From Candidatus Obscuribacteraceae bacterium (GTDB lineage Bacteria > Cyanobacteriota > Vampirovibrionia > Obscuribacterales > Obscuribacteraceae): a stretch of 64,000 nucleotides of DNA. This document shows, piece by piece, positions 32,964 to 38,082 of this stretch. The translations under genes and the position numbers were made by a program. The stretch's first letter is position 1; each line of letters opens with the position of its first letter. Location: the NCBI GenBank assembly GCA_044229845.1, contig JBGASG010000002.1, forward strand, positions 32,001 through 96,000, given 5' to 3'. The notes beneath the pieces are model-generated. The model searched no databases. It saw only the letters and a list, made by a program, of their open reading frames with translations, and was not told where the DNA came from.

Positions 32964-33755
32964 CTAGGTGTAGAGCCCACCGCTGACTTCAATTACTTGA
33001 CCGCTGATGTAGGAGCCTGCGCCGGCAAGAAACACAACAGCGGCGGCGATGTCTTCAGGAGTTCCCATGCGACCCAGCGGAACACGCGATAAGATTGCGT
33101 TAATCACATCTTCGCTGAGCGCGCGCGTCATATCGGTGTCAATGAATCCGGGAGCGACTGCATTGCAAGTGATGCCGCGCTTTGCGTATTCGATGGCGAC
33201 CGTTTTGGTGAATCCGATCAATCCGGATTTGGCGGCGGCGTAGTTGGCTTGACCGGCGTTTCCGTGAACGCCCGACGTCGAACTTATATTGATAATTCTG
33301 CCGTGGCGATTTTTTGCCATTACCTTGACAACGGGCTGCGTGACTTTGAATGCGGAGGTCAGGTTGGTGTCGATGACGGCCTGCCATTTGTCTTCGGTCA
33401 TACGCATCAATAGATCGTCGCGGGTGATACCAGCATTGTTGACCAGGATGTCAATGCGTCCAAACTTCTCGACGACCGCAGCCACCATCTTGTCGATGCT
33501 CTCGGCCTGGGTGACGTTGCACGGAACGCCGATTACCTGCCCACCCTCGGCGGCCAGTTCTTTGGCGGTGTTGGCGGTGGTTTCTTCGTTGATGTCGGAG
33601 ATGACAATCTTGGCGCCTTCCTTCAAAAGCGCGTGCGCGATTGCTCTGCCGATGCCGCGTCCGGAGCCGGTAACAATCGCTACCTGGTCTTTCAGCGACT
33701 TGCGGATTTCATGTTGGTCTTTGGCTTCCGCGCGTGTTGCTTGTTCTGTCGTCAT
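32964..33755 (-). CDS. fabG: 3-oxoacyl-ACP reductase
   Basis: TGSGRGIG, NNAGITRD, GNAGQANYAAAK and PGFIDTDMT. Confidence 0.95.
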   Translation of the reverse strand: MTTEQATRAEAKDQHEIRKSLKDQVAIVTGSGRGIGRAIAHALLKEGAKIVISDINEETTANTAKELAAEGGQVIGVPCNVTQAESIDKMVAAVVEKFGRIDILVNNAGITRDDLLMRMTEDKWQAVIDTNLTSAFKVTQPVVKVMAKNRHGRIINISSTSGVHGNAGQANYAAAKSGLIGFTKTVAIEYAKRGITCNAVAPGFIDTDMTRALSEDVINAILSRVPLGRMGTPEDIAAAVVFLAGAGSYISGQVIEVSGGLYT

Positions 33756-34424
33756 CGCTTTTCCCTACATCTGATGAATGGAACGGTGGGCGGCAAGTAT
33801 AGCAATCGCGGCGCCCTCAAAGCCGCTTGCGCAGCCAATTGTACGCAGGGTTTTACACGCCAACGCCGCGCCGCACTCTATTTCGCATCGTCCACGCAGT
33901 TCGCTTGAGAACCAACACGCGAAAAACGTTGGTTTATCGCTGCGCGTGCTTTGAGGTTTCTCGCCTCGCGGGTTGTCATGAGGCTCGACGGCGAATGCGC
34001 GAAAAACGCATTTTCTTCGCGCGATGATTTGAATTGCAAGCAACAGGTGGTGCACCGCGCAGGCACCAGTCTGCAACTACCGGCAGATCGCTGCGCGCGC
34101 ACCATCGAAGACCCGCATTGCAAGCCTGAGTTCGCAAGTCGATCACAGAGCGCGCACATTGCACTGCAAGAAACCACACAGAAATGATCGCGTTGAAGAA
34201 ACAGAAAAAGACGCCGCAAAGCTGCAAAAAATGCGTTGCAACACAAAAACTGTTTTTGGGTGATACCAAATCCGGTGAAACGCGCATATGAAGCCATTTA
34301 TGCGATGCGTCTCATAACCACTTTGTATCGAAAAGTGTCGACTTATACCATAACCTGAGATACACTTAACAGCTTTTAGCCGCCTTCAGTGGGGTAATTA
34401 CGTATCCAAATCTCATATTTCTTA

Positions 34425-34453
34425 TCGACACTTCACCGTTTCTAAATTATGTT
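34425..34453 (+). promoter_or_regulatory. Possible sigma70 promoter upstream of the structured region
   Basis: TCGACA-17bp-TATGTT in an AT-rich context. Confidence 0.45.
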
Positions 34454-34459
34454 CTTGTC

Positions 34460-35060
34460 ATTGGTAGAGGGTACGAGCATGCAACCGATAAGCGGATTCC
34501 GAGTACAACTCGGCTGACTTATCGTGGGACAGTTCACATCTACAAGCAAGCCGTTCGCCACGTAGCAGGAGGTAGCGAGCGGAGATCTTAACGCAAGCCT
34601 CAGGAGGGCGCTGCGATAAGACTTGCTGACCAGGAACAGGAAGGCACACGTTCGAGCGCATAAACAGAGCAACAGACTATGGCGGTCTGTTCCTCTAACA
34701 CGGGTTGAAGTACATCGAGCAGTTGGCGCTCGTAACTTCACCGATTCGGTTCATGCCGGCACCGCCGGCAGTGCGACTGCATCGGGGTGCATCCGCACAC
34801 CCATCGTTCAAAACGAGTAAACAGGTCAGCTCGGATCACAATCACGTCCAATAAACGAATCAGAGAACCGATTGGCGTCGGTTCCTGTTCGTCCCTGGCG
34901 TGAAAAACATAAAACAACGGATCGGCAGTTCAGCACCGGTCGGTTATGTCCGCATGGAAACAATTTATCTCGATCGTTCGCGACGTAGCAGGAGGTAGCG
35001 AACGGGTTCTGCCGCGCGCTTGTCGAAGCGCACCGCACGCAACATCATCGGGAGTGGAAT
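34460..35060 (+). ncRNA. Putative ~600-nt structured RNA or 5' leader with repeated hairpins
   Basis: About ten hairpins. A 32-nt hairpin is duplicated with only structure-compatible changes. Three CAGGAG loops and three UGGC loops; no credible ORF. Confidence 0.6.
34551..35005 (+). repeat. Dispersed 32-nt hairpin repeat at 34551-34582 and 34974-35005
   Basis: YCGTTCGCSACGTAGCAGGAGGTAGCGARCGG; 29/32 identical by manual alignment. Confidence 0.92.
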
Positions 35061-35064
35061 CACT

Positions 35065-38000
35065 ATGGGCGATCGTGGATTTGAAGGCGTAGTCAGTAAT
35101 ATTGTTCAACAACAGCAAGCTGCTGTATTCGATGTTCCGACACTGTTCGGCAATGGACCGAAAAACATTCCACAAATCGACGCACAAGTGCTCGAGAATG
35201 TAGGTCACGATTCTGTTCTTCAAAGTATGGCCAATTATCGCGTGGCGAGATTGGCGATGGTAACTGCGGATGGCGTCCGCTACTTACCTCAAGGTTTTGC
35301 AAATGCAGTTGAATATAACTTAGACCATCCCGGTGAAATGGCTCTCAAGGTTGGCGTAGCCGCGGGACTGGGACTGGCTATGCGCGCCATCCTGCCGAAG
35401 GCAGGTGCCGCTAAGGCGTTGGCGGGGACAATTATGGGCGCGTTCTTTATAAAAGATGCTGCCAAGCCGATCGTTCAAGGTTGGGCTGATGTGTGGGACA
35501 ACAAGTCGCTCGCCAATCTCGATCGCGCCGGACAGCGCATGGGTGATGGACTCGGCATGTTCGCGTTCGACAGCGCGCTGACCTTACCGGTCGGCATGCT
35601 GGCCGACAAAGCCGCCGGCATGACGCTCACCAAGACGAGCTGGGGCCGCTCGTTCGAACTGGGCAAAGAAAACTTCTACAACTCCGACGCCAGTGCGGTC
35701 GGTCGCTTCTTCAACTGGAGCACCCGCACCGCCGACAACACCAGCACTTATCTCTCGCAGCGCTTGCTGGGCAATGCGCCGCACGAAACACTGACAATAG
35801 ATCAGAAACTGGCGCTGATCGCCGATGCACAGCGCTCACATCTCACCGATGCGCAAGCCGCTCGCGCCGGCACTATAGATGATGCGTTCAAAGCGCAACT
35901 GGAAACACAGCGCCGCTACCGCATGGACATGCCCGATACCATCGAAGGATTGATGGCGGATGTTCCGGTCGGCGAACAAGCAAAGTTTGGTCTGACAAAC
36001 AAGGGGTTGGAAACACGCACCGCAACGACAGCAACTCAACTGGCCGCTGCGGAACTGGAAGCTGGTCTGGTTGCAAAACCGGGGCAGATGGGGCAAGGGC
36101 AAGGATTGTCTCCGGCGCGCTTTGTTGATGAAGGCGCAGGAACCGGTGGTGCAGGCAGGGGCACCGAGACTACTGGGGGCGATGCTCCTGGCACCGGAAC
36201 TGGCGGCAAAGGCACGCCGGTAGACAAACCGCCCGTAGTGGCAGAGCCGCAAGCTCCGCCGCTGCCGACCGGACCGAAGGTGCCGCTGGATGTGCGCGAC
36301 GTCGGCAACATGGCATCAGCCGTACGCGAACGCGCCGGTCAAGTCACCGAATCCGACATGGCAATCGCCGATCTGCGTGAGGGCTGGCAGTCGTCGATGC
36401 GCGCCACCACCCTGGAACCACCAGGACCACCGAAGCTGCCGCTGCTCGATCGCGGTCACTTCGAAAACAACAAAAATCTCATCGAGTTGGCGGATCAAAT
36501 TCGCACTCCGGAGCAGGTTAAGGAAGCCGGTTTCCTCATGGAACACTTCCGCGTCGCCAACCAGCAACTCGTCTTGAACGAGAAGTTGCCTGAGATCGTC
36601 GATCTGAACAACTACTCGCGTTCAGTCCACAACAAATTGATGGAGCTGTTGGTCAAAAATGGCGTCAAGCCGGAAGAAGTTCTGCGCGGCACCAACTCTC
36701 CGATGTTCCTGATCTTCGATTCACGCGCCGCGGGTCCCTACACCATTCCGGCGATCAAAGGCGTCACCGACACACCGGTGGTGGTGCTCCCGCGCGAATA
36801 CCAGAACATGCTGGGCGTGCACGTGGCAGGCGTCTACCCGCACGAACTGGGACACGATCTTATATATGGCGACTTGCTGCGTTTTCCAGAAACCCTGCGC
36901 AATAAAGTGCTCACCGAAGACGTTGTCTCGGCCGGCATGAAACAAGCAGGCATCCCCGACGTTCCGGTGAACGTCCCCGGTCACGGACTGATGCAAAAGA
37001 GCGAACTCTTCGTGCGCTTGCTGCAAGCTCAAGCCAATGAAAACACAGCAGATTGGTTTGGCACGGCAATCGATCCGAATACTGGTTTGTCGCTGGCGGT
37101 GCTCCTCGGCTCTCTCCGCAAACCTCTACCCGGTGCGCCGGCGGGAGCCGCGGGAGCTTTAGAAACCCGCAGCATGTACGGCAGCGAGTTTGCCGATCCG
37201 ACCAATCCGCTCGGCATCGAGCCGCACGGAATCGACAGATGGCGTCTGAAATCGACGGCACAAGTGCTGCGCGAAATGAGCGGCGGCGACAAAGCGATTC
37301 TCGAGCGCGCCACCAACATGGATCGCCTCGCAGAACAGATGGCACGCCCTGGCGAAACATACGCCTGGGCTAACATGGACAAGCCGGGTGAATACTTCGC
37401 AATTCCTCAAAAAGAGTGGGACGCGATTATTCCGGCGATTGTCAAAGCGCAACTCGATACGCCGCTTGACGCACTGAACGGACGCACGCTGCGTCAGGTA
37501 TTCCCTGACATGCGGCAGACCTTCCCGCGCGTCGATGCGCTCGCGGATCAGATGGCGGCTGCGGCTCTGGAAGGACGTCCCACTGTGATGGGCACATTCG
37601 ACAAGTCGGCGCACCGCATCGAAGATGTGTTCTCGGCTGGTCTCTCTGCCTGGGCGAAAGCCATGGAGAAAAATCCGGCGGCCGGTGAAAAAGGACACAT
37701 TGCACCCGACCAACTGATTTCGAATATCAACGCGATTTCGGAAAGTCTGCGCGCCCAATATCGCGGCGACGCGCCAATGCCGATTCCCGGCTTGACCACT
37801 CCCGGCAAGGTGGACTTCGCGACTGCATTCAAGAGACCGTCGTACTTCGTTCAGCAATATCTCGGCAAGGCAGTGGAAGCGCAGCCGCAGATTCGCGAAA
37901 CGGTCGGAAACTGGGAACCCTTCTTCACTCGCTACGTGGGCACGCAACTGGGACTGGCATTCTCAGGTGAAGATCTGCGCCGGCAGCGGGCAGCTAAATT

Positions 38001-38082
38001 CGGGTTCACGATCGACGATCACAGTGCCACCATTACGCCGCCTCCGGGCAGCGAGACGCAACCAAAGCAACGCGGTAATTGA
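35065..38082 (+). CDS. Large toxin-like protein: N-terminal hydrophobic helices, Gly/Pro linker, zincin metallopeptidase domain
   Basis: ALKVGVAAGLGLAMRAILP..AGTIMGAFF; YPHELGHDL, ANENTADWFG and EPHGIDRWR. Confidence 0.78.
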   Translation: MGDRGFEGVVSNIVQQQQAAVFDVPTLFGNGPKNIPQIDAQVLENVGHDSVLQSMANYRVARLAMVTADGVRYLPQGFANAVEYNLDHPGEMALKVGVAAGLGLAMRAILPKAGAAKALAGTIMGAFFIKDAAKPIVQGWADVWDNKSLANLDRAGQRMGDGLGMFAFDSALTLPVGMLADKAAGMTLTKTSWGRSFELGKENFYNSDASAVGRFFNWSTRTADNTSTYLSQRLLGNAPHETLTIDQKLALIADAQRSHLTDAQAARAGTIDDAFKAQLETQRRYRMDMPDTIEGLMADVPVGEQAKFGLTNKGLETRTATTATQLAAAELEAGLVAKPGQMGQGQGLSPARFVDEGAGTGGAGRGTETTGGDAPGTGTGGKGTPVDKPPVVAEPQAPPLPTGPKVPLDVRDVGNMASAVRERAGQVTESDMAIADLREGWQSSMRATTLEPPGPPKLPLLDRGHFENNKNLIELADQIRTPEQVKEAGFLMEHFRVANQQLVLNEKLPEIVDLNNYSRSVHNKLMELLVKNGVKPEEVLRGTNSPMFLIFDSRAAGPYTIPAIKGVTDTPVVVLPREYQNMLGVHVAGVYPHELGHDLIYGDLLRFPETLRNKVLTEDVVSAGMKQAGIPDVPVNVPGHGLMQKSELFVRLLQAQANENTADWFGTAIDPNTGLSLAVLLGSLRKPLPGAPAGAAGALETRSMYGSEFADPTNPLGIEPHGIDRWRLKSTAQVLREMSGGDKAILERATNMDRLAEQMARPGETYAWANMDKPGEYFAIPQKEWDAIIPAIVKAQLDTPLDALNGRTLRQVFPDMRQTFPRVDALADQMAAAALEGRPTVMGTFDKSAHRIEDVFSAGLSAWAKAMEKNPAAGEKGHIAPDQLISNINAISESLRAQYRGDAPMPIPGLTTPGKVDFATAFKRPSYFVQQYLGKAVEAQPQIRETVGNWEPFFTRYVGTQLGLAFSGEDLRRQRAAKFGFTIDDHSATITPPPGSETQPKQRGN

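Follow-up and report, generated by a model that had tools for sequence, protein, structure and literature searches.

A probable genus-restricted structured RNA in a sludge bacterium, possibly a long translational-control leader with exposed Shine-Dalgarno-like loops

The leader of E. coli rpoS, at ~570–600 nt, combines a stem that occludes the Shine-Dalgarno (SD) sequence with purine-rich A-R-N tracts. Strong SD-like sites that lack a start codon, and paired 5′ ends, act as stabilizers against RNase J according to two reviews (PMC3997798, PMC5737220). We analyzed a locus within a 64,000-nt stretch of DNA (the window, whose numbering is used for all unprefixed coordinates) from G000, a 5.16-Mb, 88% complete assembly of a sludge bacterium of the Obscuribacteraceae. 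An element of ~605 nt (34460–35064, + strand) is flanked there by a divergent gene for a fabG-like short-chain reductase (32964–33755, − strand), which served as a synteny anchor, and by a 1005-aa ORF (35065–38082, + strand). It is placed between a family-conserved promoter and the start codon of this ORF, and contigs from the RNA libraries of three studies cover it. We conclude that the element is a real structured RNA segment, restricted to one genus and probably transcribed, for which our searches revealed no described family. That it also serves as a lineage-specific leader governing translation and stability, with GGA/SD-like loops as binding sites for 30S subunits or for a protein other than CsrA, is a reading to which we assign a probability of about 0.5.

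A candidate promoter had been predicted ahead of the element, and its conservation confirms it. A profile of relatives and a consensus scan delineate an upstream box, a −35 element (34425–34430), a 17-nt spacer and a −10 element (34448–34453) within 34386–34459 of the + strand. Built from 15 relatives with G000 excluded, the profile finds its top genome-wide match in G000 at 34386–34461 (E 0.002; next match, 0.37) and matches 38 of the 80 ortholog loci, 15 of them by construction. We infer from the sequence that transcription starts at ~34460, which is the left border given in the original prediction. Because this family-conserved promoter sits ahead of the element, ~605 nt before the start codon, the element lies inside the 5′ UTR of the downstream gene. 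The same distance spans 26–157 nt (median 123) in 37 relatives, after one of the 38 matches was dropped because it fell inside the ORF; the first-ATG rule mis-measured at least one of these lengths. The gene's conserved promoter, the failure of our scan to find a terminator-like site on the + strand and an RNA contig that spans the leader/ORF junction favor the proposal that the element is the leader of the downstream zincin gene.

The gap from the ORF to the nearest anchor gene upstream is 1310 nt in G000. In orthologs (80 upstream stretches taken), it is 19–605 nt in 73 of the 75 measurable loci; the two remaining gaps, of 1018 and 1489 nt, both hold small ORFs, and none of the 80 stretches looks like the G000 element. 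The spacer on the fabG side (33760–34380), shorter in close relatives, contains many short palindromes. At 43 of the 80 ortholog loci, a ~340-aa gene that we take to be ADP-ribosylglycohydrolase-like stands between fabG and the large ORF (e.g., L049:1463–2521, reverse-complemented coordinates). This gene is absent at the G000 locus, and tblastn gave no convincing signal of a decayed remnant there.

A 1901-nt query, of which the element makes up 0.32, has 0.23–0.32 of its words represented in six RNA runs from the three studies. Contigs were placed on the locus for three of these runs (X15, X17 and X18), the other three having shares of 0.23–0.31, and for a DNA run (X13). A single X18 contig extends from 34468 to 35017, X17 covers 34444–35072, and X15 contributes five pieces over 34487–35343 plus one deeper in the ORF; an X15 contig of depth 2 (35008–35158) spans the ATG of the downstream ORF. 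Bins 33747–34351 are uncovered in all three RNA runs and bins 35078–36500 in X17 and X18. The DNA run covers all 30 bins, but it also breaks near 34447, RNA-library contigs reveal neither the strand nor the ends nor the level of a transcript, and such libraries may contain DNA; the missing RNA cover outside the element is a weak hint of an expression contrast. The + strand is favored by the promoter and by a change at 34867 that turns an A-U into a G-U pair.

The element folds better than its shuffles (z −5.0 on the + strand and −4.2 on the − strand with 20 shuffles; 0 of 300 shuffles with span 150). The signal is confined to 34480–34960, and none is seen at 33760–34400. Among 217 folded windows, out of 220 gene-free 600-nt upstream windows of G000, its energy gain ranks 20th, i.e. 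in the top 10% only, 43 windows with a first-pass z ≤ −3 having been folded again. Other strongly folding upstream windows lie at C18:121020–121619, whose two like loops we take to be reminiscent of tandem cobalamin riboswitches, at C13:99696–100295, at C19:479248–479847 and at C21:3070–3669, which is a repeat array; C20:111600–112900 presumably holds an ORF resembling a reverse transcriptase and, behind it, a 3′ end like that of a group II intron. An Rfam scan of the element yielded no match at gathering and one irrelevant match at E 8.5. No credible ORF had been expected either, and a hexamer model called none in the region, while 0 of 7 small ORFs tested reached a Pfam cut-off.

The predicted + strand fold begins with hairpin a (34486–34524; pair probabilities 0.94–0.99), repeat hairpin R1 (34551–34582), hairpin b (34586–34621), whose CAGGA loop carries the third AGGAGG, and a purine-rich linker with two CAGGA motifs (34631–34644; GGA unpaired 0.66 and 0.53). 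Hairpin c (34666–34696; p 0.96, and z −4.2 together with the next hairpin), a model-dependent middle hairpin whose 3′ arm has competing partners (34706–34740), two small hairpins (34784–34816) and long hairpin e (34842–34903; p 0.86–0.98) follow, and the predicted fold is completed by repeat hairpin R2 (34974–35005) and hairpin f (35006–35043). Long-range domains shift with the 3′ end folded, and domain III, the last domain and the one that pairs with the SD, does not rise above shuffles when folded alone (z −0.95). The stems CGATAAG/CTTATCG and GCGCTT/AAGCGC are present as described. TGCCGGC/GCCGGCA forms in a span-limited fold but does not exceed a pair probability of 0.5 when the full element is folded, and the proposed long-range GCTGACC/GGTCAGC pair has a pairing probability of 0.17. 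Three stems had been grouped by their UGGC loops: hairpins c and e are predicted with high probability, and the middle one forms or fails depending on the 3′ end chosen for folding. As a loop family they are weak evidence, since 237 of 300 shuffles place some 4-mer in at least three loops.

The 32-nt hairpin does occur twice, as R1 and R2, with the three differences originally noted: C to U at position 1 (C-G to U-G), C to G at the unpaired position 9, and G to A at position 29 (U-G to U-A). GTAGCAGGAGGTAGC is found at just these two sites in the whole 5.16-Mb genome. Of 20000 trials with three random substitutions in the hairpin, 2441 leave the stem intact and 208 preserve the loop as well. 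The third loop (CAGGA, 34597–34609) and CAGGAACAGGAAGG (34631–34644) are likewise where they had been placed. A variant contig from X17 (depth ~4) carries four listed changes, one of which breaks a terminal pair; hairpin b retains its stability (−15.0 versus −14.9), as do 6 of 81 alternatives. The single leader difference between G000 and its near-identical relative G001 is the A-U to G-U change at 34867, in hairpin e. Together, these changes suggest that the fold is kept; they do not amount to covariation.

GGA is not enriched in the element: its total of 13 is equalled or exceeded in 37 of the 220 upstream windows. Five copies of CAGGA and three of AGGAGG occur in no other of these windows, two of the AGGAGG copies stemming from the duplicated hairpin. 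Shuffling reaches five CAGGA in 5 of 3000 cases and three AGGAGG in 0 of 3000; some 5-mer attains five copies in 2116 of 3000 shuffles, and the motifs therefore count solely with their context. Upstream of genes in G000, AGGAGG is found in 1.6% of 2742 cases.

The ribosome-binding site of the downstream gene (35047–35058) comprises the SD GGGAG (35050–35054) and a second GGA (35056–35058). Nucleotides 34968–34974 are predicted to pair with 35047–35053 over the SD, with probabilities of 0.9–1.0 when folded with the flank of R2. The GGA of the SD is predicted to be unpaired with a probability of 0.07, and its duplex with the anti-SD of G000 to yield −7.9 kcal/mol. The corresponding predictions for the three AGGAGG loops are 0.76–1.0 and −10.8 to −11.7 kcal/mol (0.76 and −11.7 kcal/mol for R1), and no AUG, GUG or UUG follows these loops within 13 nt downstream.

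Among the sequences searched, homologs of the element are confined to near-identical ones. DNA searches of 61 relatives, 104 family genomes and 401 phylum genomes returned only G001 and short chance matches, the sole phylum match falling inside a coding region, and neither G000 nor G001 contains a second copy. A near-identical copy of the locus is present in a sequence record labelled Obscuribacterales. The hairpin pattern, with two mismatches allowed, stays at control level outside G000 and G001. Exact patterns detected one locus in genome contigs, which is near-identical to L009 with the same differences, so that the two were counted once; they detected two matches in metagenome contigs, both coding and due to chance, and in viral sequences two matches and then 80 examined out of at least 119 loci, all chance. 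No match came from a protein-guided viral scan or from phages, and plasmids gave 11 short ones (E 0.2–0.6). Three covariance models (R1–R3), built from near-identical rows, found only G000 and G001 in the 104 family genomes, plus four matches of model R1 at E 0.01–0.09; they found 0 of 150 class genomes, and their best match in 30 of the 80 ortholog loci lay inside a coding region. The top match of an Atlas search scored 0.77 and revealed no family, and a literature search, conducted largely without subscription papers and without supplements, retrieved no description of the RNA. RNase P RNA was considered and rejected as an identity: the region has no RF00010 match, and RNase P RNA is missing from G000 alongside rnpA, dnaA and yidC.

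The size of ~600 nt, the many helices and two loop families, the contigs of three studies, two of which start and stop near the element borders, and the lack of sequence likeness to relatives' leaders could also be explained by a free-standing, abundant large RNA behind the gene's promoter, be it a self-assembling ornate RNA or a sponge that takes up 30S subunits or a GGA-binding protein other than CsrA, with the ORF transcribed by read-through. We consider this unlikely, as the element lacks a terminator, uses the conserved promoter of the ORF, pairs the SD of the ORF with its final stem, has no other copy that BLAST or the three covariance models detected in 103 family genomes, and shows no loop-loop complementarity of at least 5 bases among its unpaired parts.

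Compared with the G001 contig, window positions 1–64000 show identity runs of 1.4–3.5 kb alternating with blocks of 4–20% difference, a mosaic that suggests recent recombination between G000 and G001. Since identity blocks of 1–3.5 kb are common between these genomes, the identity of the element in G000 and G001 is silent on selection, and we rejected it as a sign thereof. Non-autonomous elements of the IS200/IS605 type carry similar hairpins close to each end. An insertion that is decayed or inert, for example one of such a type, transcribed merely via the promoter and stable merely via folding, would account for the direct-repeat hairpins near both ends of our element, its occurrence in one genus among the genomes searched, its unremarkable near-identity in G001 and its top-10% fold stability. 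However, the element is single-copy in G000 and G001 with no detected partner element that has the same end hairpins, its loop is 10 nt long and purine-rich, the few observed changes retain pairing, and its SD-like loops are unique among the 220 windows. An inert insertion, which would reduce the element to a mere curiosity, is thus quite unlikely.

Most riboswitches occur across genera. The position in a 5′ leader, the SD-pairing stem and competing pairings at ~34728–34732 would suit a new metabolite or ion riboswitch in which R1 and R2 are paired aptamers and the SD stem is the expression platform, but the element has no Rfam match, was not found in other genera and consists of simple hairpins with no evident pocket, which makes this explanation very unlikely.

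The original prediction had likened the GGA loops to CsrA/RsmA sponges. This part is not supported: csrA was not found in G000 or G001, GGA density is ordinary and there is no terminator. In G000, csrA gave 0 matches at E ≤ 1 (class profile, best E 8.8) in an 88% complete assembly, and none was found in G001 (assemblies 88–89% complete). RNase P RNA, rnpA and 6S RNA have no matches in G000 or G001, nor do dnaA and yidC in G000. As rnpB, rnpA, dnaA and yidC are all without matches, a block near the origin is probably missing from the G000 assembly, and the absence of csrA is therefore not proven. Among 60 family genomes csrA was found in 5, all of them from genera in which our search did not detect the downstream gene. 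RNase J exceeds the cut-off in 5 of 5 genomes (TIGR00649 in G000), Rho was found in 0 of 5, and a search of G000 for Hfq was negative. A sponge resembling CsrB/RsmZ, or a leader under CsrA control, whose csrA is missing from the assembly is highly improbable, even though the assembly is 88% complete without a block near the origin and CAGGA in loops suits the preference of CsrA for hairpin-loop GGA described in the available text of PMC4347634.

The idea of GGA recognition survives in altered form because a tandem GGA at the ribosome site of this gene recurs family-wide. A second GGA stands 2–7 nt from another at 35 of 56 SD-bearing ortholog loci as against 66 of 559 SD-bearing G000 genes, and a looser pattern is present at 49 of 79 ortholog loci as against 2 of 56 fabG starts; both patterns were devised after the data were viewed, and kin loci are not independent. 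Tandem GGA is in the majority in 11 of 18 genera and is found at the G000 gene itself; in the closest genera, leaders are short and tandem GGA is mostly lacking (g20, 0/2; g13, 1/7). Twenty-four ortholog loci from four genera (e.g., L045:2563–2677, L048:2577–2701, L263:2753–2907) share a different conserved leader of 100–157 nt with tandem GGA before the start. In 14 of these, a covarying stem links the 5′ end to the segment ahead of the GGA pair (two-sided changes at 5 of its 11 pairs) and encloses a variable interior hairpin region. Twelve ortholog loci scanned against Rfam gave no match, and a profile of relatives' leaders did not match the G000 leader. We regard the conserved leader of the four genera as a candidate new cis-regulatory motif.

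The downstream gene encodes a family-restricted protein of 1005 aa with no Pfam family. It is matched in 85 of the 104 family genomes, its HExxH and ExxxD motifs are invariant across 43 sequences, and a diverged ortholog (P0001), located on a contig of 4976 nt, shares 74% identity. The longest alignments of a predicted model (pLDDT 84) are to the M13 peptidases Zmp1, neprilysin and PepO (169–183 residues aligned, rmsd 4.1–4.3, Z 6.2–6.5, which is under 8 and calls for caution), and Foldseek returned no match at E ≤ 0.001. The protein thus appears gluzincin-like.

Under the preferred reading, that of a translational-control and stability leader, the leader would have grown in this genus from ~30–150 nt to ~605 nt and would set protein output post-transcriptionally. 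Its last domain would pair the weak SD of the gene, and translation may be off by default for that reason. The three exposed AGGAGG loops, whose predicted strength exceeds that of the gene's own SD, would bind a GGA-recognizing partner together with two additional CAGGA motifs, either 30S subunits via the anti-SD, in a standby or STAB-SD-like manner, or a non-CsrA RNA-binding protein. The ancestral target, amplified upstream in G000, may be the GGA-GGA that recurs family-wide at the ribosome site. Stems and bound partners would block RNase J, and the leader could for this reason persist as a stable RNA. If so, a short leader has grown into a 600-nt folded RNA in one lineage while retaining its ancestral promoter, which would point to GGA-based translational control in bacteria for which searches detected no CsrA, Hfq or Rho. 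Both the tandem GGA that recurs in the family and the separate covarying leader of four genera offer a direct handle for finding the binding partner. A bolder proposal, which we hold to be unlikely, is that non-photosynthetic relatives of cyanobacteria possess large RNAs of a new class, in which several perfect SD loops hold 30S subunits or, in a lineage without CsrA, titrate a GGA-binding regulator, and which arose by 5′-leader expansion to become stable and trans-acting.

Among known systems, the E. coli rpoS leader shares with the element a length of ~600 nt, an SD-occluding stem, here predicted, and purine-rich A-R-N tracts; Hfq, however, was not found in G000, and such tracts are unexceptional there (22 of 217 windows). 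The ornate RNAs GOLLD, ROOL and OLE, as presented in the available part of PMC12286853, are similar in size and number of helices, and the element is also covered by RNA contigs; unlike them, it is a chromosomal leader rather than part of a prophage or tRNA island, and it lacks an Rfam match, to these families or to raiA. Large ornate RNAs covary extensively across homologs; the homologs found for the element are all near-identical, and no kissing loops were seen. With the sponges CsrB, CsrC and RsmZ and with CsrA-target leaders, as far as covered by the accessible text of PMC4347634, it shares hairpin-loop GGA, SD likeness and a GGA pair at the ribosome site, but CAGGA occurs five times in its 605 nt, it has no terminator and lies in a 5′ UTR, its host has no detected csrA, and its loops fail to match RUACARGGAUGU. 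STAB-SD leaders of the Bacillus hbs and cryIIIA type, judged by the available portions of PMC3997798 and PMC5737220, have in common with it a long structured 5′ UTR, a strong SD-like site without a start codon and a host with RNase J. Whereas the hbs leader measures ~180–210 nt, the element extends over 605 nt, its own SD is predicted to be paired, binding of 30S subunits is putative, and it differs from STAB-SD leaders in that hairpin loops present its three SD-like sites, a duplicated hairpin accounting for two of these.
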